Notes under the pieces: generated by a model
Database searches by the model: none
What the model saw: the letters and a program-made list of their open reading frames with translations, nothing else
Told to the model about the DNA's origin: nothing
Position numbers and translations under genes: made by a program
Shown: in pieces, positions 8,105 to 26,165 of the stretch
Numbering within the stretch: position 1 is the stretch's first letter
Layout: each line of letters starts with the position of its first letter
Assembly: GCA_963827965.1 (NCBI GenBank)
Contig: CAWHCW010000002.1
Span: forward strand, 141,694 to 205,693
Direction of reading: 5' to 3'
Origin: an uncultured Chloroflexia bacterium
Lineage (GTDB): Bacteria > Chloroflexota > Limnocylindria > Limnocylindrales > CSP1-4
DNA: 64,000 nucleotides

Positions 8105-8134
8105 CCACCGGCTCTGTTCAACGAGCACCTCGGT

Positions 8135-8211
<77 letters not shown>

Positions 8212-8445: not shown

Positions 8446-9666
8446 CTAGATCGGCTCGACCGAGCGGAGGGGCACGACAGCTGGCCGGGTCTGGCCGTGC
8501 CGCGCGTGCTGGGCCCCGACCACCGCGGCGATCCCCGGGAGGCGAATTGCGGCTGCGGCCACCAGGGCCGATACCCCGACGCCGAGGGCGACATTGATGA
8601 CGAGCTTCGTCGAGGTGTCGAATGGCGAGGCGACGACGAGGGCCGAGATCGCGATCACGATGGGGAAATGGAGGACGTAGGTCGGCATCGAGGTCGCCCC
8701 TGCGAGACGGGGCAGGGGGCGTTTCATGAGCCCGCTGCGCATGCCTGCGCCGAGCAGCGCGAGCGCCGATGAGCAGTTGGCCGTGCGAGCAGGCTGACGA
8801 CGAGGACGTAGGTCGCGTCGTAGCGGCGCGCGCCGCCGGCGAAGACCACTGGCATGAAGCCGGTCACGGCGGCATCGCCTGCCAGGGCGACGCCCGTGGC
8901 CACGATCGCCGGCGCCAGGTCTCGCCGGACCGCGGCGACCAGGCGATCGTCGCTGAAGATCACGAACCCGAGCACGAACATCGCGCCGTACATGGCGAAC
9001 GATGCCCAGTCGTAGGGCGCGGTCGCGGAGGACACCGCGAAGAAGGGCAGCGTCACGAGCGTGATCGGGACCGCGAACAGGAGGGTGTCGCCGGGTTCCT
9101 GCTCCAGCTCGCGAGCGTGTCGATCAACGACGTGCCGCGCGCCGTCGAGAGGAACGCGAAGGCCGGCGACCCGACGGCGAAGAGGAACAGCCAGCCGAGG
9201 AACCACAGGTGCATGCTCGCCTGGAAGAGCAACGGCGAGAGGCCGAAACGTTCTTGACGTTGTAGTCGACGACGAGGCCGGGGTAGGCGACGAGGTACGC
9301 GAGGAACGATTTGGGAGCGGATCCCGCGTGGAGCGCGATGATGTAGCCCGTCAGTGGCGTCAACACGATCGTTCCGACGACGAACGGGACGAGCAATCGC
9401 GCGGCTCGTTCAGCGAGGAAGGCGCGCACCGTCCTCGTCCGCAGGGCCAGGCGGGCGCTCGCGCCGGCGAGCACGAAGAAGACCGGGAAGGCGAAGCCCA
9501 GCAACGCGGTCGCCAGCCCGAGGAAGCCGATGCGCTCCGGGTTCTGCACATGCCAGGGCCCGAAGCTGCCGAACGGCAGCACGGCGTGGAAGGCCACGAC
9601 CCGCCAGCACGGCGAAGCATCGCAGCCAGTCGACGAAGTGGACCCGCGTTCCGGCCATGGCGCTCA
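8446..9666 (-). CDS. Acyltransferase family 3 integral membrane protein; at least 3 frameshifts
   Basis: MSAMAGTRVHFVDWLRCFAVLA / VAFHAVLPFGSFGPWHV..FPVFFVLAGASARLAL, then hydrophobic segments in three frames, ending at ORF 8446-8742 (YVLHFPIVIAISALV). Confidence 0.7.
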
Positions 9667-9681
9667 TCGCACGCGGATCGG

Positions 9682-9905
9682 CGGCGTGCCGTCTCCTCGG
9701 CGGCAAGGACGCGGCGCAGGACCTTGCCTGTGAAGGCGAGGGGCAGCTGCGCCCGGAACTCGACTGCCTTCGGGACTTGTACGGCGCCAGCCTGGCGCGG
9801 AGGAACTCCAGCAACTCGTCGGGCTCGGCCCGCTCGCCGCAGCGCAGGACCACGAACGCCTTGGCACGCTGGTCCGGGCCGCAGGCTGGAACGCCGATGC
9901 GACGG
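9682..9905 (-). pseudogene. 3' remnant of an AMP-dependent acyl-CoA synthetase/ligase
   Basis: KAFVVLRCGERAEPDELLEFLRARLAPYKVPKAVEFRAQLPLAFTGKVLRRVL (ligase C-terminus) with no N-terminal body. It is fused directly to leader motif copy A. Confidence 0.6.
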
Positions 9906-9930
9906 CCAGTTCTCGGGGAGAAGGCTGCGG

Positions 9931-9981
9931 GTCAACCGGCACGGCGCACATCCACCGAAGGGTGAATGTGGCGGTTGATTC
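9931..9981 (-). promoter_or_regulatory. Recurrent leader motif, copy A (GAATCAACC..GGATGTGCGCCGTGCCGGTTGAC)
   Basis: Minus strand reads GAATCAACCGCCACATTCACCCTTCGGTGGATGTGCGCCGTGCCGGTTGAC. The inner 10-bp stem CACATTCACC/GGTGGATGTG is perfect. Confidence 0.6.
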
Positions 9982-9991
9982 GGGCGGTGAT

Positions 9992-12130
9992 TCAGTCGAG
10001 CAGGTGCAGCTCGCGGCCGCGAACGATCGCCTGGACGCGGTTCCCCGAGCCGAGCTTGCCGCAGATCGAATGGACGTGCGCCTTGACGGTGCCGACCGTG
10101 ACGAACAGCTCGGCCGCGATCTGCGTGTTGGAGCGACCCGCGGCAACGAGCCGCAGCACCTCGAGCTCGCGGGGCGAGATGACTTCGACGAACGGGAAGT
10201 CAGCGCGCCGAGCTGCGGCGCGTCCGGGACCGCTTGATGCCGAAGCGGAGAGCCGTTCGAGGAGCGCGCGAGCGTCGCGGAGGACGATGCCATCGCCGCT
10301 GTCGTGGGCGAGCCCGACGGCGCGGTCGCCGTACGCCAGCGCCTGAGCATGCTCGCCGAGCGCGGCCAGGGCCTCGGCCCGCGCCAGGTGGAGAGCGGCC
10401 GCTGCGGCGGACTGGGGGCCTTCCTCGGGTTGCATGAGCGAGTCGCAGAGTGCGAGCGCGCGGGCAGGATCGCCGCGGCGGAGCTCGATCCGGACGAGGT
10501 CGCGACCGCCGTGTCCGTAGCCCAGCATGTTGCCCACCCGCTGGAGAAGCGGAAGAGCGTCGCCGAACGCCGCTGCCGCGGCCTCGTCGTCGCCGGCCAG
10601 CTGATGTCCCCGCGCGAGCATGTACGTCGCGTCTCCACGACTCAGCGCCTCAATTCCGGGCCCCGCGGCCGTCGGCACCAGCTCGAGCGCCGCGCGCGCG
10701 TGGGCGACAACGGCTTCCGCGTCCTCCCGCAGCTCGAAGAGCTTCGCCTCGACCAGCTCGAGCTGGAACGGGACGAGGAGGCGATCGACTGGCTCGACGA
10801 GACTCGCGAATTCGAGCGCGGCACGTGCGTCCGCGATGTGCGCCTCGACGCCTTCGGTCTCGCCACGGAGCACCCGGCCGAAGGCATACGTGACGGACAG
10901 CTGGGCGTCCTCCCGGACGGTGCCGGGCGGAAGCGCGTCGAGCCAGTGCTGGACCGTCCAGAGATCGCCTCGATGCAGCACCTCCATCCAATGCTGCCGC
11001 AGCAGCCTCCGCGCGCGAGCCACGTCCGTTCCGCGGAGGGCGTGCTCGATCGCTTCGCCGAACAGACCCGCAGCCTCGTACCAGTCGGCGGCCAGCGCGT
11101 GGAGGACACACGGGAGCTGCGGGTTGCGCGCCGCCAGGCGAGCCCGCAGGAGGTCGGCGAACAGGTGGTGATAGCGATACCACCGTCGCTCCTCGTCGAG
11201 CGGAAAGAGAAGCATGTTCATACGCTCGAGTCGAGCGAGCATCGCGGCGCCGTCGTCGCGACCGGTCAGGGCATCGCAGAGCGGCCCCGTCAGCCGATCG
11301 AGGATCGCTGTCCGCAGCAGGAATTCCTGCGTTTCCTCGGCCTCGCTCGCGAGCACCTCCTCGACGACGAAGTCGAGCAAGAACCAATTCGACCCGCTGA
11401 ACTCGCGCACCGCGGGCCCCGGGTCCGCGCGGCTGCGCAGAGAAACGGCGGCGAGCTGCAGGACTGCGGCCCAGCCCTCCGTGCGCTTGACGAGCTCGTC
11501 GACGAGATCGGCACGGAGGTCGAGGCCCATGGACCCCGTCAGGAACGAGGCCGCTTCGTCCCGCGTGAAGCGGAGCGCGTCTGCCCGGATCTCGAGGAGC
11601 TCGCCCCGCGCGCGCAGTCGGGCCACCGCGAGCGGCGGATCGGCGCGAGTGGCAATCGCAAGGCTGCCGTTCGGCGGCAGGCGATCGATGAGCGTCGCGA
11701 CGATCGCGTGCACCTGGGGTGACTCGATGAGGTGGTAGTCGTCCATGACGAGCATGGCGGGGTCGGGCCGGCAGCCGTACGCGGCCAGGAGATCGGCGAC
11801 GACGATCTCGGGATCGGGTGCTGCGGCATCCGATGTCGCGGCCGTGCTCCCGCTGCCATCCTGGAGCGAACGGCCGGCTTCTCGGAGGTAGCGCATGAAG
11901 CGGCTCGGATCGTTGTCCGCGGAATCGAGAGACAGCCAGGCGAAGCGCCGCCGAGTTCCGAGGAGCCAGTGCCCGAGCAGCGCGCTCTTTCCGAATCCGG
12001 CGGGTGCCGAGACGAGGACGAGACGGGCTTCCGGCGCGTTCTCGAGCAGGGCGTGGAGCCGCTCGCGACTGACATACCGGACGCCGCGAGACTGCAACCC
12101 AAGCTTGGTCGTCAGCAGAGCCTCTGTCAT
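9992..12130 (-). CDS. LAL/MalT-type LuxR-family regulator, apparently intact
   Basis: MTEALLTTKLGLQSRGVRYVSRERLHALL..LVLVSAPAGFGKSALL (P-loop)..MLVMDDYHLI..C-terminal ISPRELEVLRLVAAGRSNTQIAAELFVTVGTVKAHVHSICGKLG. The ORF extends to 12226, but the MalT-like N-terminus fits ATG 12128-12130. Confidence 0.85.
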   Translation of the reverse strand: MTEALLTTKLGLQSRGVRYVSRERLHALLENAPEARLVLVSAPAGFGKSALLGHWLLGTRRRFAWLSLDSADNDPSRFMRYLREAGRSLQDGSGSTAATSDAAAPDPEIVVADLLAAYGCRPDPAMLVMDDYHLIESPQVHAIVATLIDRLPPNGSLAIATRADPPLAVARLRARGELLEIRADALRFTRDEAASFLTGSMGLDLRADLVDELVKRTEGWAAVLQLAAVSLRSRADPGPAVREFSGSNWFLLDFVVEEVLASEAEETQEFLLRTAILDRLTGPLCDALTGRDDGAAMLARLERMNMLLFPLDEERRWYRYHHLFADLLRARLAARNPQLPCVLHALAADWYEAAGLFGEAIEHALRGTDVARARRLLRQHWMEVLHRGDLWTVQHWLDALPPGTVREDAQLSVTYAFGRVLRGETEGVEAHIADARAALEFASLVEPVDRLLVPFQLELVEAKLFELREDAEAVVAHARAALELVPTAAGPGIEALSRGDATYMLARGHQLAGDDEAAAAAFGDALPLLQRVGNMLGYGHGGRDLVRIELRRGDPARALALCDSLMQPEEGPQSAAAAALHLARAEALAALGEHAQALAYGDRAVGLAHDSGDGIVLRDARALLERLSASASSGPGRAAARRADFPFVEVISPRELEVLRLVAAGRSNTQIAAELFVTVGTVKAHVHSICGKLGSGNRVQAIVRGRELHLLD

Positions 12131-12427
12131 CGCCGAAGTCCCCTGAGATCCCGACGCCAGTACTGTCCGGCGTGACCAGCTGGCTCGTCCAGTGCCGTTC
12201 GGCGCGACCTCGGGAGAGGCGCCCAAGGCCGCGCGCGGCCGTCTTCCTGCTCCGACGACCCTCTGCCGCTCTGAGGATGGTGAATGTGACGACTGAAGAT
12301 TTTGCCTTCGGGCTCGACGCCTCCCGCTGACGTGCGCGCGACCTATCCGGCCACGCTCCGCAGCTGACCGAGCTTCGCCTGAAGCTGAGCCCGGAACGTC
12401 ACCGGGCCGGCGTGCGGCAAGACTCGC

Positions 12428-12886
12428 CTATTCGGTCCAGACGTCGATCGTCTGGTGCTTCTCTTCGTCCTCGACGTGCACGATTTCTCCCTGCTCGCCT
12501 TCCTCGATCATGGCGCTGATCGCGTCCCAGTCGAGGTTCGCGTCCTTCAGCTCCGGAGAGAAGGTTCGCGCCATCTTCATGCCCCACTTGACCAGGCGGA
12601 CGGGGACCCGGACGTCGACCGGGCGGCCATTGCCGCCGGTGTCAACCACCTTTACGTGCAGCCATCTGGGCGCCTTCGCCAGCACCTGGTCCCCGCTCCC
12701 TTCCTTCTCCGCCTGCTGGATCGCCATGTCGAACCACCTTTCCGTGACTTCTGTGGACTGAGCGGCTCCTGCGACACGGACCTTCGGGTTGCTCCGGAGC
12801 CGCTTGACCTTGCCGCCCGTCGCGTCCGTGTGGTGGCTGCCGACCGGGCTCGCGTGATCAACCGGGCGAGCCACCACGGTCTCCAT
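12428..12886 (-). CDS. Hypothetical protein (about 152 aa), second gene after the small conserved protein
   Basis: AGGAGG 5 nt upstream of ATG 12884-12886. METVVARPVDH..RWLHVKVVDTGGNGRPVDVRVPVRLVKWGMKMARTFSPELKDANLDWDAISAMIEEGEQGEIVHVEDEEKHQTIDVWTE. The composition looks protein-like, not Arg/Pro-rich. Confidence 0.55.
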   Translation of the reverse strand: METVVARPVDHASPVGSHHTDATGGKVKRLRSNPKVRVAGAAQSTEVTERWFDMAIQQAEKEGSGDQVLAKAPRWLHVKVVDTGGNGRPVDVRVPVRLVKWGMKMARTFSPELKDANLDWDAISAMIEEGEQGEIVHVEDEEKHQTIDVWTE

Positions 12887-13136
12887 TGAGGCCTCCTGCG
12901 CTGGATCTCGGTTCGAGGTTTGCGACCGTGTCGATCGAGACGAGGGATAGCCCCATGTCTCGGATGGTGGCAAGCAACCCGTGCACGGCGGCCTGGTCCA
13001 TCAGTACGCCGCTGAGAAGCGAGGTGCCGTCAGGCTCGACCGTCAACACGAGATCAGAGAACAGGCCCGACCACCACATCGGCTCCAACTGGCCTTGCAC
13101 GCGCAATCGGATCCGGTAGCTGACCGACCCTGGCAT
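12858..13136 (-). CDS. Small conserved protein (about 92 aa), paralog of 18651-18896
   Basis: MPGSVSYRIRLRVQGQLEPMWWSGLFSDLVLTVEPDGTSLLSGVLMDQAAVHGLLATIRDMGLSLVSIDTV aligns along its length with MAPSASYRIRIRFQGELGPSFSAVFADLEVGPEPDGTTLISGDVPDQAALHGLLATIRDLGLSLVSVETV. GGAGG RBS. Confidence 0.65.
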   Translation of the reverse strand: MPGSVSYRIRLRVQGQLEPMWWSGLFSDLVLTVEPDGTSLLSGVLMDQAAVHGLLATIRDMGLSLVSIDTVANLEPRSSAGGLNGDRGGSPG

Positions 13137-13193
13137 CCCCGAACCTCCGTGGCTCCGGCACAATGTGGCCGGAGACCTGCCGATCAGCCTGCC

Positions 13194-13246
13194 GATCAAC
13201 CCCCGACGCGCGCATCTGCCCCCGGACATAGTCGGCCGGTTGATTC
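13194..13246 (-). promoter_or_regulatory. Recurrent leader motif, copy F
   Basis: Minus strand reads GAATCAACCGGCCGACTATGTCCGGGGGCAGATGCGCGCGTCGGGGGTTGATC, 59 nt upstream of ATG 13136. Confidence 0.5.
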
Positions 13247-13462
13247 TGTGAGGACTGGTCCAAGCACGTCCTTCACCACCTCACGCTCGCCCCTCGCGCG
13301 TGTAGCGCAGGGTCATCCGCTCGCAACTCGAGCCGGCTGTGAGCCCGCGAGTGGGCGAGTGGCAGCGGCGGTCCTCGCGTGTGGGCAGGACAGGATGGAG
13401 GAACGGCGGTCCGTGCTGGATGAGGGACGCAGAGGCGAGTCCCTGGCGCACCAGCACGTCGG

Positions 13463-14360
13463 TCACGCCGGCGAGGGCACCGGCACAGCGGCACTGCGCA
13501 ACTGATACGCGCGCGTGGCAGCCCCACCGGCGATCGCCCAGAGGAACCAGCTGCAGTAGAAGAGGCCGAAGACCCAGAGCTCGATCTCACCCGAGACGGT
13601 ATCGCTCCCGGTGGCCAACGTGCTGACGAAGGACCAGAAGGCCGCCGGCCCGATCATGGCGACGATGGCCGTGGCGGACCAGCCGGCGGCCAGCAACAGC
13701 CGGCGCGAGACCCAGGGGGGCGGCGAAACCAGGAGCAGGGAGAGCGCGGCGGCCAGCACCCACGGGATCGCAATCAGCACTGGTTCCCAGCCCTGGCCGG
13801 CCGCGCCGGGCGACTCGAGCCCGAGCGTTCCTCCCAGCGCCCAGTGCACCCTGAGAACCGGGTACGGCAGCGCGAGCAGGAACGCAGCGTGAGCCGTACC
13901 AGGTCGCTGGCCGGGTGGACGCCGGGGCGGCCGGGCGCGCCAGGGCGAGACGCGCGACCACGACCACGGCGGCAAGAGCCAGCGCCCGAGTCGCCAGCCC
14001 CGGCCAGTAGACGACAGACAGGACGATCGCACCGCTCGCCGTTTGGTGACCGATGAGCCCTGCCGCGGTGAGCACGTCGAACGGCAGGCCATTCGCCGCC
14101 CACACCATCAGCAGGAGACCGGTCCAGCGCAGCGCCCGCTGCACGCGCAGCCACCGGGGCGAACCAACCAGGGGCATGATCCCCGCCGCGGCGACCCCGG
14201 CGGCGGCGAGCGGGAGCCAGTCCGGGGCGAAGGCCTGGGAGCCGTCCGGATTCGCGACCAGCTGTTGCCAGGCCCAACCCAGCACCACCGCGACGCACAG
14301 GGCCAGCCCGATCCACGGCTCGGCCCTGGCGCCAAGTGAGTCGCTACCCTGCGATCGCAT
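13463..14360 (-). CDS. Integral membrane protein, unknown function; one frameshift near 13900
   Basis: ORFs 13587-14360 and 13463-14092 give consecutive hydrophobic helices (WIGLALCVAVVLGWAW..LLLMVWAANGLPF.. / ..VLIAIPWVLAAALSLLLV..IVAMIGPAAFWSFV..LFYCSWFLWAIAGG). Confidence 0.5.
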
Positions 14361-14628
14361 GATCCTTCCTCTCGTTGTCGGCGGGATCGAGTGACAGCCA
14401 TGCGTAGGCGAGACCGCGCGACGCGAGCCAGCCGGTCGCGGCGACCGTCTTGCCGTATCCCGGCGGCGCGGACAGGAGCGTCAGGCGGGCGGTGTCCTCG
14501 AGCCCTCGATCGAACAGCGCGCTGACCCGCGGGCGCCCGCGGTATCCGGAGACCGAGGCCGGCGCCTGGAGCCTCGTCCCGACGATTGGGACTCTCGATT
14601 CGGGGTGAGCCGATGCGGACGACGGCAC
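14344..14628 (-). pseudogene. N-terminal fragment (about 90 aa) of a LAL/MalT-type regulator
   Basis: RPRVSALFDRGLEDTARLTLLSAPPGYGKTVAATGWLASRGLAYAWLSLDPADNE parallels residues 20-110 of the 9992-12130 regulator, then stops. Confidence 0.6.
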
Positions 14629-14879
14629 AGACCGGATTATCGGTGGCCGTGACCCACCGCACGCAGCCGTCTTGCCCCTTCATTGCTCTTGGACGTTGCC
14701 CGCGCCCCGGTATGTTCGCGCGAGCGAGGCGCGAGCGGCGACCGTCGATGACTTGGCGGACGACACCTGCCTGCTCGCTCTTGAGCTCGGTGCATTCGGG
14801 TGCCAGGGACCCAGGAGGGATAGGGGACCGTCGGACGCGAGGGAAAGCGAGAGCGAAGGGCGAAGCCTCCCGGGCCTGG

Positions 14880-14961
14880 CGGTCTTGACGGCCCTGCCGT
14901 TGCTCCGGGAACCGCGTCCAGGCGATCGTTCGCGGCCGGCGAGCTGCACCTGCGCGACTGA
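14880..14961 (+). pseudogene. 3' remnant of a LuxR-family regulator gene
   Basis: Reads ..GNRVQAIVRGR / ELHLRD-stop across two frames, nearly identical to the C-terminus of the 9992-12130 gene (GNRVQAIVRGRELHLLD). Confidence 0.55.
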
Positions 14962-14971
14962 GCCGGCGCGC

Positions 14972-15022
14972 GAATCAACCGCCGAATTGACCCTGGGGTG
15001 CATGTGCGCCGTGCCGGTTGAC
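14972..15022 (+). promoter_or_regulatory. Recurrent leader motif, copy B
   Basis: GAATCAACCGCCGAATTGACCCTGGGGTGCATGTGCGCCGTGCCGGTTGAC. Downstream, CCTTCTC (15029-15035) is complementary to GAGAAGG (15070-15076), which overlaps the SD. Confidence 0.55.
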
Positions 15023-15079
15023 CCGCAGCCTTCTCGGCGAGAACTGGCCGTCGGAGGGCAGGGGCAGCGGAGAAGGGCG

Positions 15080-15326
15080 ATGGGCACCAACGGTTCGGAG
15101 TCGACCGGTCGGCGCTCCGCGCCGCGGCTCCGCCACTACGACCCGGGTGTGCCCGCGACGCTCGACTACGCCACGTGCCGCTGGACGCCCTCCTCAGCCG
15201 GTCTGCCGAGGGCGCGAGCTCCCGCTCGCCGTTACAGGCAAGGTCCGGCGCCGCGATGAGGAGGAACAACTCGAGCGCCGCTTGCGGGCGGCGTGTAGCG
15301 AAATACCACGCGTCATCGGGCGGTGA
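15080..15326 (+). pseudogene. Internally deleted acyl-CoA synthetase (N-terminal about 40 aa joined to extreme C-terminus)
   Basis: MGTNGSESTGRRSAPRLRHYDPGVPATLDY.. (ligase N-terminus) is followed within about 150 nt by ELPLAVTGKVRRR (ligase C-terminal motif). Confidence 0.55.
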
Positions 15327-15391
15327 GCGTGCGCGGCTTCGCCGTGACGGGATCTTCGATGCGCCCCGCGGACATCGCGCAGGAGGCTGAC

Positions 15392-16160
15392 ATGATCATC
15401 GCATCGGCGACCGTCCCGCACTGGGGAGGTATCGGGAGCATCCGCTTGTCGCTCGCCATGCTCATCGTCGTGGTGGTCCTGGCGACCGCCGCGCCGATCG
15501 CTCTCGGCGTCACCGTTGATGCCCCATACGCCATCGGGTCCAAGACCGTTCTGTGCGGCCTCGCGGTGGTTCTCCTCACGGGCCTCCGGTGGTGGCGGCG
15601 CGCCGGGTTCCTCGCGCTGCCAGGTCGTCGCGCACCTGGCCTGGCTCGCCCCGCCGGCTCTGCTCGTCCTGGGCGGCCCTGGTCGCGGTCCGGCGGTAGC
15701 CGGCCCGGTACCCATGGAGCCGATGCTCGGCGCCGGCCTTCGCGATCGCGGCGCTGGGGGACGGGCTTCTCGGAGGAGGCGCTCTTGCAGGGGCGCGCTG
15801 TTGGAGTCGCTGCGACCCCGGGGCGCTGTGTGGGCGATCACCGGCACGACACTTGCGTTCGCGGCCATCCACCTCGCAGGGCTCATGGGCGGGGCAACGC
15901 TCGAGGCGGCACACTGGCGCAAGCGCTCCTCGGGGGCCTCCCGCTCGGGCTGGCCTTCGCCGGGTCTGAGGCCGTCACCCGCTCCATCTGGCTGCTCGTT
16001 GTCATCCACACGGTCAACAACTTCACGTCCTATCTCATGAGTGGCCACTGGGAGGCCGTGAGCCAGGATACGACTCGCTTCGCGCTCGTCGGAGTCCTCC
16101 AACTCGGGCTGGTGGTCGGCGCCGGTCGCCCACGGCGTCCGGTTCCTCTGGCGCTTCAGT
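15392..16160 (+). CDS. CPBP-family intramembrane glutamic endopeptidase (CAAX protease-like); at least 3 frameshifts; 3' end uncertain
   Basis: AGGAGG at 15381-15386. MIIASATVPHWGGIGSIRLSLAMLIVVVVLATAAPIALGV. Motifs FSEEALCRGALLESL and FAAIHL, and VIHTVNNF, lie in different frames. Confidence 0.6.
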
Positions 16161-16364
16161 CGAGTCGGGTGACCTTGAAGGAGCAGGATCGCAGGGTCTG
16201 GGAGCTGGTCCCAGGGCTCCCACCCCGCCGACGCACCGCGTGGGCATGCCACGCATCGCGGGCGCGGGCGCGAGGCGGACGATGCCGACGTCGACGAGCG
16301 AGGGTCCCTCGCCGCGCACGATCACGTCGAATCACGCGTCGCCGACGAACCTGTGACTCCCGAC

Positions 16365-16557
16365 GAGCGCCCGCCATGCGGCGGCGTGAGGTCGGCTCAG
16401 ACCCCTCACGGCCGAGCTGTTCGTCACCGTCGGGACCGTCAAGGCGCACGTCTATTCGATCTGCGGCAAGGTCGGCGCGGGGAACCGCGCAGGCATCGCT
16501 CGCGACCGCGAGCGGCATATGCTCGACGAACCGCCGGCAAATCAACCGCCGCATTGA
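16365..16557 (+). pseudogene. Degenerate LuxR HTH-domain remnant
   Basis: AELFVTVGTVKAHVYSICGKVGAGNR matches the HTH of the 9992-12130 regulator. The upstream part is frameshifted and lacks the regulator body. Confidence 0.5.
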
Positions 16558-16584
16558 CCCTGCATGTGCGCCGTGCCGGTTGAC
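16539..16584 (+). promoter_or_regulatory. Recurrent leader motif, copy C (5-nt shorter inner region)
   Basis: AAATCAACCGCCGCATTGACCCTGCATGTGCGCCGTGCCGGTTGAC, followed by the same CCTTCTC..GGAGAAGG..ATG leader as copy B. Confidence 0.5.
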
Positions 16585-16739
16585 GCGCAGCCTTCTCGGC
16601 GAGAACTGGCCGTCGGAGCCAGGGGCAGCGGAGAAGGGCGATGGCCACCAACGGTTCGGAGTCGACCGGGCCGGCGTCCCGTCCGTGGCTCCGCCACGCC
16701 CGGACACTCCCACGTCGCACGCAAGGAAGGAGTCGAGCG

Positions 16740-17686
16740 ATGTCCGACGTCATCGAGGCGACTGGGCTGACCAGGCGATACGGCTCTCGCCGGGGGGTGG
16801 CCGACCTCAGCTTCAGCGTCGCCCAGGGGGAAGTCTTCGGCTTCCTCGGCCCGAACGGTGCCGGCAAGACGACGACGATCCGCCTGTTGCTGGGGGCGAT
16901 CCGTCCCCACGGGGGCAGTGCCCGTGTATTCGGTTTCGACACCTGGTCGCAGGCAACGGCGGTCCACCGCAGCCTTGCCTCCCTGGGAAGTGACCCGGGG
17001 TTCCTCGGCCAGCTGACCGTCGAGGAGCAGCTGGATTGGCTGGCCGGCCTCCGCGGGCTTCCGCGAGGCGCGTGGCGACGACTGGCCGAGCGCCTCGAGC
17101 TCGACCGCAGCACCCGGATCCGCAAGCTTTCGCGTGGCAACCGTCAGAAGGTCGGGGTGGTCTCGGTCTTCATGGGGCACGAGCGCCTGCTCGTGATGGA
17201 TGAGCCGACGAGCGGCCTCGACCCGCTCATGCAGCGCGAGTTTCTCTCGTTGGTCTCAGAGGCGAAGTCCGAAGGCCGGACGGTGTTCCTGTCCTCGCAC
17301 AACCTGCCCGAGGTGGAGCGATGCTGCGACCGGGTGGCAGTGATCCGGGACGGGCGTGTTGCCGAGGTCGGGCCCGTGCAGGCGCTGCTCGGCGAGCACT
17401 GGCGGTCGGTCAACCTCGTTCTCTCGGAGGTGCATCCGCCAGGTGTGTTCGCGATGCCCGACGTGCAGGTGATCGCCGATACGGGTCGCGAGGCCCACCT
17501 GATGGTTCGCGGTGACGTGCGCCCGTTGCTGCGGCGGATCGTCGACCTCGAGGTGCGGGACCTGGCCATCACCACGCCCGACGTCGAGGACGTCTTCCTC
17601 CGCTTCTACGGCGCAGAGGGCACCGCGGTCGTGCCTGCCGGCGACGTCGCCAAGCGATGCCGCGTGACCGAGGAGATCTCCGATGA
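16740..17686 (+). CDS. ABC transporter ATP-binding protein (ABC-2/DrrA-like); stop obscured (probable frameshift near 3' end)
   Basis: AAGGAAGGAG RBS. MSDVIEATGLTRRYGSRRGVADLSFSVAQGEVFGFLGPNGAGKTTTIRLL (Walker A), LSRGNRQKVG (signature), LLVMDEPTSGLD (Walker B). Confidence 0.85.
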
Positions 17687-18485
17687 ACGCGCTCGTCCTC
17701 CGTCTCGAGATCCGGCGAAGTCGCGTCCTGCTCTTCTGGCTCGCCCTCACCGCGGTCCTCTACGCGGTGTTCATGGCCGCCTACTACCCGACCCTCGTGG
17801 CCGACACCGAGCTCGTCGACACGATGATCAAGAACTTCCCGAAGGCGATGATCGCGGCGTTCGGGATCGAGGGGAACCTCGCCGACCAGGGAACCTACTT
17901 CAACGTCTACCTGCTCTCGATGGTCTGGCCACTGCTGGCCGCCATCGCGGCGATCCTGATCCCGACGCGAACGCTCGGCGCGGATGTCGAGCACGGCTTC
18001 CTGGAGCTGCCGCAGGCGACGCCCGTCTCGCGGACCCGGTACCTGGTGACGGCGATCGCGGCCCAGTCGTCGTGCTGGCCACGCTCGTGACCGCGACCGT
18101 GGCGGCCATCGTCGGAACGCTCCTCGTCGTCGGAGTCACCGTCGATCTCGCCCGCTGGGGTCTCGTCGCCGTCCTCGCCCTGTCGTTCGGCTGCGCGATC
18201 GCGGCGCTGACGACGCTGCTCTCGGTGCTGACGCTCAGTCGCGGTCAGGCCGGCGGTCTGGTCGCCGGACTCCTCGTCGCGATGTACCTGGGCCACACGA
18301 TCGCGAGGCTCGCGCCGGATCTCGGCGCTGTCTCGTACCTGAGCGCCTTCCGCTACTTCTCGCCGGCCCCCGTCATCAATGTCGGGAGCGTCCCCGTGGA
18401 GGGGCTCGCGATCTTCGGGGCCGTGGCGGTGATCGCCTGGACTGGCGCGATACGCGCATTCGGTCGCCGAGACCTGCTGAGGTGA
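17683..18485 (+). CDS. ABC-2 type transporter permease; one frameshift near 18065
   Basis: MNALVLRLEIRRSRVLLFWLALTAVLYAVFMAAYYP..LLSMVWPLLAAIAAIL, then in another frame VVVLATLVTATVAAIVGTLLVVG..LSAFRYFSPAPV..AIFGAVAVIAWTGAIRAFGRRDLLR. Confidence 0.75.
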
Positions 18486-18538
18486 TCGCGATCGCGAGGT
18501 CCGCTCCCTCGACGCTCCGATCCCTTGCATCCCCGCCC

Positions 18539-18591
18539 GAAATCAACCCTCCGTATCCATCCCCGGATGGATGCGGGTGCCGGTGGTTGAG
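18539..18591 (+). promoter_or_regulatory. Recurrent leader motif, copy D
   Basis: GAAATCAACCCTCCGTATCCATCCCCGGATGGATGCGGGTGCCGGTGGTTGAG. The inner stem CCGTATCCATCC/GGATGGATGCGG is fully complementary. It lies 60 nt upstream of ATG 18651. Confidence 0.6.
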
Positions 18592-18650
18592 CGACACGCT
18601 CCTCGTGTGATCCGGCCAGCCATCGCGCCGGACCAGACGGAGGCTCGCGA

Positions 18651-18896
18651 ATGGCGCCCTCGGCCAGCTACCGGATCCGCATCCGCTTCCAGGGCGAGCT
18701 CGGCCCGAGCTTCTCGGCGGTGTTCGCGGATCTCGAGGTGGGGCCCGAGCCCGACGGAACCACCCTCATCTCGGGCGACGTGCCCGACCAGGCGGCCCTG
18801 CACGGGCTGCTCGCCACGATCCGCGACCTCGGCCTGTCGCTCGTCTCGGTCGAGACCGTCGCGAGTCCTTCATCAGCGTCCCGAACAGGAGACTAG
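18651..18896 (+). CDS. Small conserved protein (81 aa), paralog of 12858-13136
   Basis: GGAGG RBS. The ORF is intact. See the paralog alignment under 12858-13136. Confidence 0.7.
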   Translation: MAPSASYRIRIRFQGELGPSFSAVFADLEVGPEPDGTTLISGDVPDQAALHGLLATIRDLGLSLVSVETVASPSSASRTGD

Positions 18897-18898
18897 TC

Positions 18899-19318
18899 AT
18901 GTCGCTTTTGCTCGGCCTCTTCCTCGTCCTCCACGGCGGCGTCCACGTCGGCTATCTGTGCAGCCGCTCGTGGCCCTTCGCCGCCGGCGATCCGTGGCTC
19001 GTCACCGGTCTCGGCGCCGGTTCCGACGCGGTCAACGCGATCGCCGCCGCGGTCGTGATCGTGACCTTCTTCTCCTTCCTGCTCGCCGGCCTGGCCACCG
19101 CGGCACCCCTGCCCCGGGCGTTCTGGGCGCCGCTCGTGACCGGCGGGTCGATCGCCTCGGCGATCGTGCTCGTCGTCTTCGTCACCCCCGGCACCCTGCC
19201 CGGCCTCGCGATCGATGCCGCGCTGCTGTGGGCGGTGCTCTCCGGCGCACGCCCGACGCCCTTCTTCGGCCGCCACGGCGACCGGGAGCGCCCGGGGCAG
19301 GTCCTTGGTTCCCGCTGA
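18899..19318 (+). CDS. Small integral membrane protein (139 aa), unknown function
   Basis: MSLLLGLFLVLHGGVHVGYL..AIAAAVVIVTFFSFLLAGLATAA..GSIASAIVLVVFVTPGTLPGLAIDAALLWAVL. Four predicted helices. AGGAG RBS. Confidence 0.6.
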   Translation: MSLLLGLFLVLHGGVHVGYLCSRSWPFAAGDPWLVTGLGAGSDAVNAIAAAVVIVTFFSFLLAGLATAAPLPRAFWAPLVTGGSIASAIVLVVFVTPGTLPGLAIDAALLWAVLSGARPTPFFGRHGDRERPGQVLGSR

Positions 19319-19348
19319 GGGATCGGCACCGCCCAGAGGAGCTGACCG

Positions 19349-19916
19349 ATGAACGTGCTCATCGCCTACGCCACCCACCACGGCTCCACCCGCGAGATCG
19401 CCGAACGCATCGGGGGCCTGCTCGACCGCCGGGGACTCGGCGTCACGGTCGCGCGGGCTGACCAGGTTCGCGACATCCGCCCGTTCGACGCCGTCGTGGT
19501 CGGCAGCGCCCTGTACTGCGGATGGCTCAAGGAGGCCACCGAGCTCGTCAAGCGCAACCGCCATGCGCTTGCCGCGCGCCCGGCCTGGCTGTTCAGCAGC
19601 GGCCCCCTTGGCACCGAGACGATCGACGTCAAGGGTCGCGACGTCCGGGAAGCCGCCGTCACGAAGGATGTCGCCGAGCTCATCTCCGCGATCCGTCCGC
19701 GAGGCCACCAGGTCTTCTTCGGCGCCTACGACCCAACGGCCGCACCCGTCGGGTTCCTCGAGCGGACGATGCGGCTCGCGCCGCGCGGCTGCAACGTCCT
19801 GCCCGCCGGCGACTTCCGTGATTGGGCGGAGATCGAGGGGTGGGCCGCCGCCATCGCCGACGAGCTGGCGACCCGACTCGGGCATCCCGTCGCGAGCGGC
19901 AGCGCCACCCGCCTGA
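19349..19916 (+). CDS. Flavodoxin-domain protein (HemG-like flavodoxin_5); stop uncertain, as the ORF reads on in frame into the next gene
   Basis: MNVLIAYATHHGSTREIAERIGGLL..FDAVVVGSALYCGWLKEATELVKRN..AARPAWLFSSGPLG..GDFRDWAEIEGWAAAIADEL. It is a paralog of 23184-23762. Confidence 0.7.
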
Positions 19917-19984
19917 GGCGAGCGAGGCACCAAGCATCCCGCCCGTCGATTTACCATCGCACATCGAACGAAGAGAGGATCCTC

Positions 19985-20524
19985 GTGGCTACCGCAACGC
20001 AACGAAGCGCATCTCCCGTCGGCATCGCCGGCGACACGACACGGAACCGCAGCCTGACCAGCGAAGCCGTGTGGAACGAGATCTCGAAGGCGTCGTTCGC
20101 GATCGTGGCCTACGTCACGCCCGCCGGCGAGCCACGCTGCAGCGGCATCAGCTTCAAGTCCTCGGGCCGGCGGCTGTACCTGGCCGTCGATCCGGACAGC
20201 TGGAAGGCGAAGCACATCGCGGCCGGCGGGCGGGTCTCGGTGACCGTGCCGGTGCGCCGTGGCGGAATCCTGACGCTGCTCCTCCCGATACCGCCCGCCA
20301 CCATCAGCTTCCAGGCGACAGCGGTCGTCCATCCGGCAGGTCCGATCGACGAGTCACCGTGGCTGCCGAAGGAGCTGGCGTCGCTCCTGCCCGTGGATCG
20401 TCGGACCCTCGTGCGCGTCATCGAGCTCATCCCCGAGGGCGAGTTCCTGACCTACGGGATCGGCGTCTCACTCATGGACATGAAGCAACCGGACGTGGCA
20501 CAGGGCCGCGTCGCGGTCGGATAG
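19985..20524 (+). CDS. Pyridoxamine 5'-phosphate oxidase-like (split beta-barrel, FMN/F420-binding type) protein
   Basis: GAGAGGA RBS then GTG 19985. SEAVWNEISKASFAIVAYVTPAGEPRCSGISFKSSGRRLYLAVDPDSWKAKHIAAGGRVSVTVPV. Confidence 0.6.
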   Translation: MATATQRSASPVGIAGDTTRNRSLTSEAVWNEISKASFAIVAYVTPAGEPRCSGISFKSSGRRLYLAVDPDSWKAKHIAAGGRVSVTVPVRRGGILTLLLPIPPATISFQATAVVHPAGPIDESPWLPKELASLLPVDRRTLVRVIELIPEGEFLTYGIGVSLMDMKQPDVAQGRVAVG

Positions 20525-20528
20525 GGGC

Positions 20529-21599
20529 ATGGCGACTCGGAGCTGGCCACGGGTGGCCGCCTACCTCGCCCCGGCCTGGTCGTTGGGCTACGGGCTCCTC
20601 GCCCTGGCCTGGGCGCTCGGCGCCGGCGGATATCCGTTCGACGAGGCCGTCGACCCGGATGCGCGCCTGTCACTCCTCGGCGGCGTGGCGCCGCAGGTCG
20701 GCGCTGCGGGCCTCGCGGCGCTGGCACTGCTGGGCGCCGTCGTGGGCGCCGCGATGGTTGCTGGCCGTGGCCACGGCATTGGTCGCCTGCTCGCGATCGG
20801 CCTCGGAGGGCTCAGCGCCGTCACGTTCGCGGTCCTGCTGCCCGATTTCCGCGTCCTCGTCACCATGGCCTACACGCCCATCCTCCTGGTCCTCGCACCG
20901 TTCGGCTGGCCGCCGGGCGTCAGCCTCGCATCGGAGCTCAGCTGGCCCCTCGTTCATCAGCTCGTCGTGATGGCAGGCGGCATCGCGTGGGCCGGGGCGA
21001 CGATCCGCTACCGACGGCGGACGGCCGGCGCCTGCGAGCGATGCGGCCGAGTTCCGAGCGCGCCCCACGAGCACGAAGTCGCCTGGGCCTTCCGGTGGGG
21101 TCGCCGGGCCGTCGCGGTGGCGGTGGTCATCCCGCTGCTCTACGTGGCCACCCGCTGGGCGTGGGCGCTCGACATCCCGCTGGGCATGCCGGCGGACGAC
21201 CTTCGCGCCTACGTCGGCAACCAGCGGCTCGGCGGCGTGCTGCTGGCCTCCGTCGCCGCCCTCGGTGCGCTCCTGACGACCGGCCTTGTCCGGCGCTGGG
21301 GCGAGGTCGTGCCCGGCTGGGTGCCCGCCATCGGCCGGCGACGGATCCCGCCCGGACTCGCGATCGTGCCGGCCTCCCTGATGGCGATCGTCATCACGTC
21401 GGCTGGCGTGGCGTTCGTGCGCAGTGTCCTCGTCGGCGAGCTGCCGTTCCTGATAGACGAATGGGGCGTGATCGGGCCCACCCTCCTGTGGGCGATCTGG
21501 GGCCTGGCCCTCGGCGTTGCGACCCTCGCCTACTCCTACCGGCGCCGGGGGAGGTGCGGGACGTGCGGCGGCGGGGGCAGTGGGCGCGAGGAGCGGTGA
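20529..21599 (+). CDS. Integral membrane protein (356 aa) with cytoplasmic CxxC motifs, unknown function
   Basis: Intact ORF with multiple hydrophobic helices. CERCG (mid) and CGTCGG (C-terminus). Confidence 0.6.
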   Translation: MATRSWPRVAAYLAPAWSLGYGLLALAWALGAGGYPFDEAVDPDARLSLLGGVAPQVGAAGLAALALLGAVVGAAMVAGRGHGIGRLLAIGLGGLSAVTFAVLLPDFRVLVTMAYTPILLVLAPFGWPPGVSLASELSWPLVHQLVVMAGGIAWAGATIRYRRRTAGACERCGRVPSAPHEHEVAWAFRWGRRAVAVAVVIPLLYVATRWAWALDIPLGMPADDLRAYVGNQRLGGVLLASVAALGALLTTGLVRRWGEVVPGWVPAIGRRRIPPGLAIVPASLMAIVITSAGVAFVRSVLVGELPFLIDEWGVIGPTLLWAIWGLALGVATLAYSYRRRGRCGTCGGGGSGREER

Positions 21600-21600
21600 T

Positions 21601-22947
21601 GTGTCCGGGGCGACCCCTGCTGCGAATGCCCTCGGTCCTCCCGTCGCTTCGTCGCCCCTGAAGATCCGCGACTTCCGACTCCTTTGGCTCGGGGAGGCGA
21701 TCTCGGCCCTCGGTGACCAGTTCACGATCGTCGCGCTGCCATGGCTCGCGCTCCTCATGACCGGCAGCGCGCTGGCGCTGGGCACGGTTCTCGCCGTCAT
21801 GGCGATCCCCCGAGGGCTGCTCATGCTCGTGGGCGGCGTGTTGGTCGACCGGAAGTCCCCCCGCCGGTTGATGATCGCGGCGAACCTGGTGCGTCTGGGC
21901 ACGGTCGTCGCGCTCGGGTCGCTCGTGCTCTGGGGAGCCGTCGAGGTGTGGATGCTGTACGCGTTCGCCCTCGCCTACGGCGTGGCCGACGCGATGTTCT
22001 TCCCGGCGCAGCATGCCATCGTTCCCGCCCTTGTCGACGAGAGCCGGCTCCAGCAGGCGAACGGGATCGTCCAGGGCACAGGGCAGCTCGCGCTGTTCGC
22101 CGGGCCGGCGATCGCGGGCTTGTTCGTCGCCACGCTCGGGGCGAGCGGCAGCACGCCGAACCTCTCGGGGCTCGGCGCGGCACTCCTCGTCGACGGCCTG
22201 AGCTTCGCAGGCTCCCTGACGACGTTGCTGTTCATCCGGGGCGGCTCTGCCGGCGGCGGTGCCGGCGAGCGAATGATCGATGCGATGAGGGCCGGCATCG
22301 ACTTCGTCTGGCGTTCCCCGACAAAGCGCTTCGTCCTGTTGTTCGTGATGGCCATCAACCTGCTCGTCGTGGGGCCGTTCACGATTGCCGTCCCGCTGAT
22401 CTCGTATGCCCGCCTGCCCGAGGGTGCCGCGGCATTTGGCGCCATCCTCTCGGCGATGGGCGGAGGGGCGCTCCTCGGCATGCTTGCGGCTGGCGCGCTG
22501 CCATCGCCCCGGCCGGCCCTGTTCGGCCCGACCGTGCTGTCCGTCCTTGCCATCACGGGGCTCGGCGTCGCGGCACTGGCGTTCACGGGCTCGATGCTGG
22601 CCGCGGTCGTGATTGCCGCGGTGATGGGAACAGCCAGCGGCTACGGCAACATCCTGCTCGTCACCTGGACACAGCGGCGCATCCCGCGAGCCCTCATGGG
22701 ACGGGTCATCAGCCTGATCGGCCTTGCCTCGACGGCGCTGGTGCCGGTCTCGCAGGTCATCACCGCGATGACGGTGCAGGTCAGCCTCGACGCCACCCTG
22801 TTGCTGGCCGGGGGCGCCCTGACGCTGATCGCCGTCCTGAGCGCGGTGACGCCGACGGTCCGGACGATGGGCCTCGAGCCGACTCTCCGGGAGGCGTCCG
22901 TGCCGTCGGCGCAGCCTGGCTCGTCCTCGCAGCGGGCTTCGTCCTGA
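21601..22947 (+). CDS. MFS transporter (EntS/MFS_3-like)
   Basis: GTG 21601 overlaps the upstream stop. LKIRDFRLLWLGEAISALGDQFTIVALPWLAL..VGGVLVDRKSPRRLMI. 12 TM-like segments. Intact. Confidence 0.8.
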   Translation: MSGATPAANALGPPVASSPLKIRDFRLLWLGEAISALGDQFTIVALPWLALLMTGSALALGTVLAVMAIPRGLLMLVGGVLVDRKSPRRLMIAANLVRLGTVVALGSLVLWGAVEVWMLYAFALAYGVADAMFFPAQHAIVPALVDESRLQQANGIVQGTGQLALFAGPAIAGLFVATLGASGSTPNLSGLGAALLVDGLSFAGSLTTLLFIRGGSAGGGAGERMIDAMRAGIDFVWRSPTKRFVLLFVMAINLLVVGPFTIAVPLISYARLPEGAAAFGAILSAMGGGALLGMLAAGALPSPRPALFGPTVLSVLAITGLGVAALAFTGSMLAAVVIAAVMGTASGYGNILLVTWTQRRIPRALMGRVISLIGLASTALVPVSQVITAMTVQVSLDATLLLAGGALTLIAVLSAVTPTVRTMGLEPTLREASVPSAQPGSSSQRASS

Positions 22948-23007
22948 CATCCAAGGGGACCTCGGCCGTCGACCGAGGCGCTCGCCCGGCACCGGATCGC
23001 GCCTTCC

Positions 23008-23059
23008 GAATTCAACCCCCCGGTCCGTCCAACGATGGATGTGCCAGGTGCCGGTTGAG
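23008..23059 (+). promoter_or_regulatory. Recurrent leader motif, copy E
   Basis: GAATTCAACCCCCCGGTCCGTCCAACGATGGATGTGCCAGGTGCCGGTTGAG. The inner stem GGTCCGTCCA/TGGATGTGCC pairs, with G-U pairs and one mismatch. Confidence 0.55.
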
Positions 23060-23183
23060 CCCCATCCTGCTCTCCGTTGGCGCTGCAGCAGTCGACGCCC
23101 CGTGTGACCGTCACGGGCCCGCCGCAAGCACCGACCCGCGCAAGTCATCATGGGAATGGCAATTCGCGATCGAGGAGGCTCCG

Positions 23184-23762
23184 ATGACCAGGGTTCAAGT
23201 TGTCTACGCCAGCCGTCACGGTGGCACGGCCGGGATCGCCGCCCGGATCGCCGAGGTTCTGCGGACCGAAGGCGCAAGCGCCGTGGTCGCCGACGCCGCC
23301 GAGCGGCCCGATCCGGCAGGCTTCGACGCGTACGTGATCGGCAGCGGCGTCCAGATCGGCAAGTGGCACGGAGAGGGGTTCGAGTTTCTCGAGCGGAACC
23401 AGTCGACGCTCGCCACGCGGCCGGTGTGGCTCTTCAGCAGCGGGCCCCTGCCCGGCTCGACGAAGGAGACGGCGGCGACGGATCCGCTGACGAATGCCCT
23501 GGGCCCCGAGGAGGGACCGGGGAGCGGCGGTCGCAAGAAGATCGCCGCGCTCTCGGCCGCGATCCACCCTCGCGACCATCGCGTCTTCCAGGGCGCCTTC
23601 GACCCGAACGACCCCCCCAAGTCGATGCAGGAGCGGCTGGTTCGCCTGATGCCGGCAGCGAAGAAGATCCTCCCCGCCGGCGACTTCCGCGAGTGGCACG
23701 CCATCGAAGCCTGGGCCCACGAGATCGCGGCGGAGCTGGTCGCCAAGGTCCCTGCCGGCTGA
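23184..23762 (+). CDS. Flavodoxin-domain protein (192 aa)
   Basis: GAGGAGG RBS. MTRVQVVYASRHGGTAGIAARIAEVL..FDAYVIGSGVQIGKWHGEGFEFLERN..RPVWLFSSGPL..GDFREWHAIEAWAHEIAAEL. Confidence 0.8.
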   Translation: MTRVQVVYASRHGGTAGIAARIAEVLRTEGASAVVADAAERPDPAGFDAYVIGSGVQIGKWHGEGFEFLERNQSTLATRPVWLFSSGPLPGSTKETAATDPLTNALGPEEGPGSGGRKKIAALSAAIHPRDHRVFQGAFDPNDPPKSMQERLVRLMPAAKKILPAGDFREWHAIEAWAHEIAAELVAKVPAG

Positions 23763-23763
23763 G

Positions 23764-23816
23764 CTTCCGGCTACGGCGTCATCGACTCGGTCAGGCCGAA
23801 GCCGCGGAGGCGGAGC
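23764..23816 (+). repeat. 53-bp direct repeat, left copy (duplicate of the 3' end of the saccharopine dehydrogenase gene)
   Basis: cttccggctacggcgtcatcgactcggtcaggccgaagccgcggAggcggagc differs from 27224-27276 at one base. Confidence 0.9.
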
Positions 23817-23834
23817 CAAACGCGCGCCTCCGTC

Positions 23835-24305: not shown

Positions 24306-24846
24306 CCACATCTCCTCCTGGACTGTCGGGGCCGACGGGCGTCGCCCGGCGACGCTCAGGGTGCATGTCGGCAGGGCCCGAACGGACCGGCGCCAGCGGC
24401 TGCGGCGTTGCAGTCGCCTCAAAAGGCCGCTCCGGCCGCCCCAGCGCCCGTGTGATCGACGGCGGTCCTCGTCTTCCTGACGGTTCGGTCCGCGATGGGT
24501 CGTGGCGTTCGGCCGAACAGACTCGTCAACTGACGCGCCGCTTGACGGGCGCCATCCCATCTGTAACAGTAATGGTGATTGGTCGTAGAAATGACCATCC
24601 GCGACGCCACCCGGAGATGCGGCGAGCTCCGGGTGCCCCGCGACTTCCGCTGCCACCTCAACCTCGAACGATCGGACCGGCCAATGAGGGCGATCCCGCC
24701 CCACGTCCCGAAGCAGCACTGACCGATGGCACCGGCCGCCCTCGACACACTCGGCGCCGTCCTTCCGGAATACCGGCCTCTGCTGACCGACCAGCTGTTC
24801 CTTCGCTATGGGCTGACCGGACATCTCGAGGCACGGGAGAACGAGC

Positions 24847-26123: not shown

Positions 26124-26165
26124 CTCGGGCGTCGCCCGTCTGACACCCATGGAGAGGTCAAGGTC

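Follow-up and report, generated by a model that had tools for sequence, protein, structure and literature searches.

Regulators of the LuxR family bind inverted repeats. NarL recognizes sites of the 7-2-7 type; the lux box has its centre at -42.5, the class II position. MalT uses short boxes with the core GGA(T/G)GA, and the LAL protein SCO6993 binds palindromes in its target promoters and in its own promoter (PMC9628970). Here we analyse a directional motif that occurs six times (copies A to F) near the gene for a MalT-like LAL regulator in a 64-kb window of contig CAWHCW010000002.1 from an uncultured Chloroflexia bacterium. The original prediction read the motif as a hairpin-forming cis-regulatory RNA and named an operator of a LAL/LuxR regulator as an alternative. 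Our comparative evidence supports that alternative: with a probability of roughly 0.75, each copy is an activator-dependent promoter together with an operator, in the regulon of the adjacent LAL regulator. The motif would be a transcription-factor operator-promoter of a familiar type that defines a regulon, and no new class of RNA.

The pattern TCAACC-N25-45-GGTTGA has six exact matches in the window, compared with 0.01 expected from shuffles (9932-9978, 13196-13243, 14975-15021, 16542-16583, 18543-18590 and 23012-23058, with spacers of 35, 36, 35, 30, 36 and 35 nucleotides (nt), respectively), and allowing two mismatches adds a single, unrelated match. A sequence-only covariance model made from 52 family members likewise finds only these six sites (strands +, +, -, -, + and + for E, D, A, F, B and C); every other match scores 19 bits or less and is either noise or one of these sites read on the opposite strand. 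Both searches agree with the places and orientations first described, and the separations and start-codon distances came out the same on re-measurement, GGTTGA lying 58, 57, 60 and 59 nt from the start codon in B, C, D and F. In copy E the distance is 125 nt. All six copies are directional and each faces a gene, bearing out the view of an unassigned motif (without a match in Rfam, see below) at a fixed distance before accessory operons. Copies A, B and C carry a common remnant of the 3' end of the LAL gene and therefore leave about four independent loci in the window, as had been cautioned. In an alignment of the six copies with their flanks, conservation exceeds the inverted repeat: ATG(C/T)G is invariant 8 nt before GGTTGA, and CA..CT..TC follows it.

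The anatomy of the motif emerged from 56 distinct copies anchored on GGTTGA. Conserved blocks are (A/G)AA(C/T)CAACC, TCC(A/G)TCC, GATGGATG(C/T)G, GGTTGA followed by GCC, and CA-NNN-T placed 4 nt after GGTTGA. The T of this last block stands at +15 in 55 of 56 copies, with the middle three bases free, even though the scan that collected copies had required its CA but not its T. Where copies were obtained independently of that pattern (the six in the window, loci L001-L008 and those found by the model only), the A and T of the hexamer are kept; its first base is G in L126 and L017. A pyrimidine at +22 (46/56) and a purine at +23 (50/56) follow 7-8 nt past the hexamer, as at a transcription start. 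TCC(A/G)TCC-NN-GGATGGA forms a 7-2-7 palindrome, from the dyad of which CAnnnT begins at exactly 31 nt. Conservation per position is 80-98% in the left arm. The right arm shows no variation among the collected copies, for which GGATG was a selection requirement, and varies in model-only copies (GGATTGA in L014 and L101). An inverted repeat of this size suits a helix-turn-helix dimer, and a LuxR-type gene co-occurs nearby.

Between -160 and +60 of the motif, the sole positionally conserved NAnnnT is the one at +10, and the same interval has essentially no TAnnnT upstream of the motif, that is, no conserved upstream promoter. Host tRNA genes are preceded by TACAAT and TACCAT. Other promoter readings were tried and rejected: with TTGAGC or TTGACC as a sigma-70 -35, no class has a -10 at 16-18 nt, and extracytoplasmic function (ECF)-type or SigR-type readings (GGAAT/GGAAC ... 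GTT/CGTC) have unsuitable spacings. An ECF promoter, once suggested as a separate possibility, is disfavoured, as there is no conserved -35/-10 pair at ECF spacing. A leader peptide beginning at the internal ATG (ATG-TGC-GCC...) was discarded, its frame and stop being inconsistent across copies. A consensus promoter scan of 14 kb gave 0 sites and was uninformative, and a terminator scan gave four sites, none at motif copies and no more than in shuffles. The CCTTCTC element of copies B and C, which had been proposed to pair with the Shine-Dalgarno (SD) sequence, overlaps the -10 and under the promoter model would be largely untranscribed.

To see the motif outside the window, we used two collections. 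Close relatives were fetched by homology to the 81-amino-acid (aa) small protein encoded behind copy D, not by the motif, and these homologues come mostly from soil metagenomes. All of the close loci (L001-L008), taken from the longer contigs, carry the motif, with GGTTGA ending 56-59 nt before the start codon, and at each an AAA_16/WHD_MalT/GerE (MalT-like) gene adjoins the small-protein gene, usually divergently. At L003, L007 and L008, a second copy just past the regulator stop codon points at the next gene, which is the arrangement of copy A. A species-representative genome collection, scanned once with a loose pattern (CA and GGATG required), yielded 115 stretches. Sorting by inspection left about 55 distinct family copies, mostly from soil metagenome-assembled genomes (MAGs) labelled uncultured Chloroflexia and in a few cases from MAGs labelled Chloroflexi, Limnocylindrales or Binatia, and about 60 matches in other phyla (for example, Binatia MAGs) that were set aside as chance or coding sequence. 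One source of false positives is a conserved coding stretch, CAACCGTCAGCCAAAAGATATACGGATGGGGATTCAGCAGGTTGACCAGCA, found in many Binatia-labelled genomes (L021, L036, L043, L051, L052, L055, L071, L075 and others) and unrelated to the motif.

A LAL homologue lies within the fetched stretch at 32 of 38 motif-bearing loci, commonly with one copy on each side of the gene, and one of the copies usually stands before the conserved 81-aa protein. Among non-family loci, only L020 and L062 (duplicates of L003 and L006) and the actinobacterial-type L009 and L010 have one, and none was found at any chance-hit locus of the collection scan. Copies are of two classes. Class I copies precede the small protein, whereas class II copies follow the regulator, 11-90 nt past its stop codon, or stand alone, and precede a beta-lactamase-like hydrolase, PNPOx-like proteins, a 250-aa membrane protein and others. 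Recurrence upstream of flavodoxin, PNPOx or ABC-2 genes in other genomes with compensatory changes had been named as strong support for an RNA; the motif does recur upstream of PNPOx, flavodoxin and exporter genes, and its outer-stem changes lack compensation. We found no description of the motif in Rfam or in the literature searched.

More distant homologues bear on the position of the predicted promoter elements. Protein similarity alone served to retrieve another 80 small-protein loci from metagenomes, and likewise L009 and L010. The window-type motif is present at only one of the 80 (L126); many others, together with L009 and L010, have a different motif in the same place, laid out as ATCACCAC-N4-ATCACCAC-NN-GTGGTGAT-GC-N4-CTCACCAC ... 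TAnnnT, with the palindrome TCACCAC-NN-GTGGTGA. In a strict scan, 27 of 28 forward-oriented palindromes have a TAnnnT within 24-40 nt of the dyad, all at exactly 31 nt, the exception (L160) having none in that range. A looser scan of the 80 metagenome loci plus L009 and L010 gives 37 distinct palindromes with TAnnnT at 31 nt, and in 11 of these 37 the ATG or GTG of the small protein stands 6-7 nt past the hexamer. Such spacing marks leaderless genes: the hexamer then serves as the -10, transcription begins at the start codon and the dyad falls at -42.5, outside the transcript. Common to both motif types are the 31-nt offset, the two-base centre of the palindrome and an additional half-site that precedes the left arm by 12 bp. 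Because the offset is shared with leaderless homologous promoters, in which the dyad is at about -42.5, the window motif is best read as a class-II-type activator-dependent promoter; its dyad-to-start distance is predicted from the sole conserved NAnnnT hexamer, at 31 nt from the dyad.

The distant motif is carried by L009, L010 and about 35 of L126-L205 (for example, L175, L130, L192 and L194), a clade that is probably actinobacterial. A third upstream type, ..AACACC.AAAGTGTCTATACG..AACACCGTG..GATATACT, occurs in lower-GC relatives of the small protein (L163, L176, L187-L189, L196, L198, L203 and L204) and may be another operator variant of the same module. At L200, about eight tandem heptamers TTTCACG lie roughly 130-40 nt upstream of the small-protein start.

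The presumed binding protein is MalT-like (Table 1). The LAL regulator has GerE (2.3e-16) and AAA_16 domains; its N-terminal 410 residues match the MalT structure 8bob (E = 3.8e-57) and its C terminus matches the DNA-binding domains of NarL, VraR and GerE, giving a helix-turn-helix of the NarL/GerE type. The NCBI MalT model NF003420, whose profile has 903 positions, gives this 744-aa protein 349 bits, under the cut-off of 537, so that the regulator counts as a homologue of MalT rather than as MalT. Just upstream of a tRNA-Pro gene, 7332-7532 (+) encodes a second helix-turn-helix of the GerE type, which shares 43% identity with LAL residues 678-744 and has no motif copy associated with it.

Gene comparison agrees that D and F face paralogous small proteins and E a flavodoxin-like protein. 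After copy F the order is small protein, 181-aa open reading frame (ORF) and LAL regulator; copy F thus heads the regulator's own gene group, and the regulator would be autoregulated. The label 'acyl-CoA ligase remnant' for the genes behind A, B and C was not confirmed by Pfam and comes solely from AMP-binding-like peptide motifs read by eye. Neither Pfam nor NCBIfam assigned a family to the small protein, to the copy A remnant or to the ORFs of 139, 181 and 356 aa. An AlphaFold model of the 81-aa protein (predicted local distance difference test score 78.7) has the order beta-alpha-beta-beta-alpha-beta, a predicted ferredoxin-like or ACT-like fold. The best PDB matches of this model in Foldseek, the acetohydroxyacid synthase regulatory subunit, acylphosphatases and the DriD C-domain, are weak, all with E>0.05.

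Table 1 Predicted promoter-operators and associated genes in the window
Feature	Coordinates	Strand	Details
Copy D, full promoter-operator (predicted)	18539..18600	+	53.6 bits
Copy D TCAACC	18543-18548	+	
Copy D 7-2-7 palindrome TCCATCC-CC-GGATGGA	18556-18571	+	dyad between 18563 and 18564
Copy D GGTTGA	18585-18590	+	
Copy D -10-like CACGCT	18595-18600	+	begins 31 nt past dyad
Copy D predicted transcription start	~18607-18610	+	
Copy D predicted 5' untranslated region	18611..18653	+	TCCGG 18611-18615 / CCGGA 18628-18632; SD GGAGG 18639-18643; ATG 18651
Copy E, class II type, TCCGTCC-AA-CGATGGA; 125 nt upstream of flavodoxin-like gene	23008..23068	+	57.7 bits
Copy A, class II type; starts 11 nt past LAL stop; faces decayed AMP-binding-like ORF	9922..9981	-	48.7 bits
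Copy F, predicted promoter-operator before small-protein paralogue, 181-aa ORF and LAL regulator	13186..13247	-	42.9 bits
Copy B, paralogue of A; palindrome left half decayed	14972..15031	+	42.9 bits; fold z = -0.40
Copy C, paralogue of A and B; 5-nt deletion within palindrome	16539..16593	+	28.5 bits
LAL regulator, presumed binding protein	9992..12226	-	MalT-like STAND NTPase region and C-terminal GerE/LuxR helix-turn-helix
81-aa small protein, first gene of copy D operon	18651..18896	+	conserved LAL-gene partner across genomes
Small-protein paralogue behind copy F	12858..13136	-	
Remaining copy D operon	18899..22947	+	139-aa membrane protein, flavodoxin_5-PNPOx fusion, 356-aa ORF, MFS transporter
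Flavodoxin-like gene behind copy E	23184..23762	+	
LAL C-terminal remnant preceding copy C	16405-16527		
ABC/ABC-2 ORF faced by copy C	16641-18485		

A tRNA-Pro(CGG) gene (8135-8211, +) borders a lower-G+C stretch at about 8000-28000 (0.68-0.72 versus about 0.75 elsewhere), which holds the motif copies, gene remnants and a triplicated module (LAL 3' end, motif and acyl-CoA-ligase 5' end); this stretch may be an island or a decaying accessory region. Elsewhere in the window, 54287-54368 (-) matches the c-di-GMP-II-GAG riboswitch aptamer of Rfam (55.1 bits; gathering score 40), and 55571-55667 (+) is a selenocysteine tRNA (Rfam 68.4 bits; ARAGORN anticodon TCA) with a TACCAT -10-like hexamer in front.

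In the mechanism we propose, the upstream half-site of each promoter would be TCAACC (about -64 to -59), which precedes the left half of the palindrome by 12 bp. The 7-2-7 palindrome, centred at about -43.5/-44.5, is where a dimer of the regulator would be expected to bind through its GerE/LuxR-type helix-turn-helix. Downstream would come a -35 of poor quality (aTGyGc), then GGTTGA as another half-site within the spacer (about -23 to -18), a -10 of the non-canonical form (C/G)A-NNN-T and a 5' untranslated region (5'UTR) of 27-110 nt with an SD sequence. On sensing a ligand, the STAND ATPase would oligomerize, and the oligomer would occupy the palindrome and flanking half-sites and recruit RNA polymerase like a class-II-type activator such as MalT or LuxR. 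TCAACC and GGTTGA would plausibly be contacted by further STAND protomers, as with MalT and its multiple boxes. The targets switched on would include the operon of the small ACT-like protein, flavin/PNPOx-type enzymes and exporters, and in other genomes a beta-lactamase-like hydrolase; in the window, the regulator itself would be switched on through copy F.

Several points weigh against this mechanism. The transcription start some 7-8 nt past CAnnnT and the binding of the motif by the LAL protein are predictions, as is activation rather than repression. The -10 starts with C, or with G in the two loci named above, instead of T, and the C at its first position looks more conserved than a -10 demands, in copies from a scan that itself required CA. 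TCAACC and GGTTGA are positioned asymmetrically about the dyad and the roles we give them are guesses; moreover, GGTTGA is inverted relative to the third site of the distant motif and lies about 7 bp away from that site. Finally, ViennaRNA reproduces the inner stems of A, D and E, which fold significantly better than shuffles (z = -2.96, -3.19 and -3.28), and the non-Watson-Crick cells of the inner stem are mostly sense-strand G.U (32) as opposed to A.C (6), as predicted for an RNA.

These last two results bear on the original prediction of a cis-regulatory RNA leader, riboswitch-like or protein-binding, in which about 105 nt would be transcribed and the TCAACC...GGTTGA hairpin would control the SD sequence through a second hairpin. 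We consider such a leader unlikely. It would account for the directionality of the motif and its fixed distance from the start codon, as well as for the folding of A, D and E. The hand-drawn inner stems hold up for those three copies but not for F, B and C, which fold no better than shuffles (z = -0.95, -0.40 and -0.46), and antisense strands fold too (A antisense z = -3.55). Most of the inner-stem G.U cells come from a single inherited class II variant, TCCGTCC. From the 52-sequence alignment, RNAalifold keeps only a five-pair inner hairpin (-4.84 kcal/mol; covariation term -0.23). In the full structure first drawn, 75.7% of cells pair versus 76.4 +/- 0.5% in column-preserving shuffles, 464 of 500 shuffles pair at least as well as the real alignment, and the covariation score is 0.097 versus a shuffle mean of 0.104. 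The middle stem, in two registers, pairs in 41-50% of cells, again no better than shuffles. Pairing equal to that of column shuffles stems from conserved columns, not from co-variation within sequences. The collection scan left the middle stem unconstrained and fixed part of the 3' arms, where covariation is therefore harder to detect.

The outer stem shows single changes without compensation (AGTTGA, GGTAGA and GGTCGA), GGTTGA is lost in L017 (GATCGG), and the stem sequences themselves are kept across distant copies, the opposite of typical RNA stems. In favour of an RNA, class II copies lie in the 3' flank of the LAL gene, within potential read-through transcripts, and an inverted repeat before the SD sequence, TCCGG-N8-12-CCGGA, is invariant in 23 class I leaders but for three one-sided, G.U-compatible changes. 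There are no compensatory changes in this repeat among the 23 leaders; it lies at 18611-18632 (+) and 13164-13145 (-) in the window, where it may fold into a hairpin at the mRNA 5' end or serve as another protein site. Against an RNA, no promoter is conserved further upstream; the predicted transcription start is downstream of GGTTGA, and the homologous actinobacterial-type sites stand upstream of leaderless genes. Rfam has no match overlapping the motif at the gathering score in the whole window or at E<=1 in 9500-23500. Hairpin potential arises because the half-sites are palindromic and inverted. The motif is a cautionary case: the nested palindromic half-sites of an oligomeric regulator can mimic a two-stem RNA with apparent 'compensatory' changes.

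Just as unlikely is an operator for a repressor or second regulator, in which a protein on the TCAACC...GGTTGA repeat would loop or occlude the promoter and the GGATGGATG block would be part of that promoter. GGTTGA does fall between the predicted -35 and -10, a classic repressor position, and the centres of TCAACC and GGTTGA, 41-42 bp or about four helical turns apart, are therefore on the same DNA face; SCO6993 is, besides, a documented LAL repressor acting on palindromes (PMC9628970). Yet the poor -35 and non-canonical -10 argue for dependence on an activator, which MalT is, and the dyad at about -43 is placed as in the leaderless homologues (-42.5). At related loci, no second regulator gene is consistently linked to the motif.

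A joint reading seems to us a shade less probable still. Here, the motif would be a LAL operator-promoter and, in addition, an RNA-level terminator, processing signal or feedback hairpin in LAL read-through transcripts, which would carry the class II copies, as these lie 11-90 nt past the LAL stop; the sense-strand bias of the G.U pairs could allow the hairpin such a role. The invariant TCCGG...CCGGA repeat of the 5'UTR could be a second RNA switch, and the LAL and ACT-like pair would be an uncharacterized sensory module of Chloroflexota and Actinobacteria with its operator sequence rewritten and its geometry kept (dyad at -42.5, half-site at 12 bp and -10 at 31 nt).

Least credible of all is a structural or mobile DNA repeat, be it an integron attC-like site, a miniature inverted-repeat transposable element or repetitive extragenic palindromic element, or a U-less intrinsic terminator of the upstream gene: the motif does lie between genes as an imperfect, roughly 50-bp inverted repeat, its AAC...GTT ends recall the R''/R' boxes of attC (consensus RYYYAAC ... 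GTTRRRY, from which AATCAAC and GTTGACC/GTTGATC each miss one position in several copies), class II copies can lie about 11 nt past a stop codon and the region borders a tRNA gene and has duplicated remnants. Against such a repeat, the LAL neighbourhood holds every copy in the window (six within 13 kb, with none in the remaining 50 kb), each copy faces a gene at a fixed distance, both orientations occur, which is unlike cassette arrays, no terminator-like site coincides with a copy, class I copies stand in divergent intergenic regions without a co-oriented upstream gene to terminate, and no integrase is among the called neighbours at related loci.

If each copy is indeed an activator-dependent promoter of the LAL regulon, the motif marks, with sharp conservation, the regulon of a previously unstudied STAND regulator of the MalT-like kind in uncultured bacteria from soil. 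Judged by its members (the ACT-like partner, redox enzymes of the flavodoxin/PNPOx type, exporters and a beta-lactamase-like hydrolase), this regulon resembles one for detoxification or stress that a ligand induces, and the motif offers a ready operator for binding and ligand-screening work.

Among known systems, the MalT-dependent promoters of Escherichia coli are close in design. There, as here, the regulator is MalT or its homologue, several short sites serve each promoter and the promoter-proximal site overlaps a poor (here predicted) -35, and the half-sites GGATGGA and GGTTGA resemble GGA(T/G)GA. The differences are that no exact GGA(T/G)GA is present, that a true 7-2-7 palindrome replaces asymmetric MalT boxes, that the LAL regulator falls under the equivalog cut-off (537 bits) and is about 160 aa shorter, and that the target genes are unrelated to maltodextrin use. 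With lux-box and NarL sites, the motif shares a 16-bp inverted repeat with a 2-bp centre, as in the NarL 7-2-7 site, and would share the position of the lux-box dyad, at about -42.5 to -44.5 from the predicted start; the regulator shares a helix-turn-helix that matches NarL, VraR and GerE structures. However, two extra conserved half-sites flank the dyad here, the predicted -10 is CAnnnT, and the regulator belongs to the large STAND ATPases rather than to the acyl-homoserine-lactone receptors or the response regulators. Streptomyces LAL regulators (PikD, SCO6993 and others) have the same domain architecture, but they are found mostly in antibiotic biosynthetic clusters, SCO6993 represses, and no consensus operator is known for them, whereas here a sharply defined motif extends over dozens of genomes together with an obligatory small-protein partner.

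The nearest counterpart is the actinobacterial-type operator. It accompanies the same gene pair and repeats the layout: the extra half-site at 12 bp upstream, GC after an X-2-X palindrome, one more site within the spacer, and a -10 hexamer at exactly 31 nt from the dyad. Its half-site is TCACCAC rather than TCCATCC/TCAACC, its third site is direct and about 7 bp further upstream where that of the window is inverted, its -10 is the canonical TAnnnT, and many of its genes are leaderless. Together, the two operators provide a natural case of promoter geometry that has been kept while the recognition sequence has changed.

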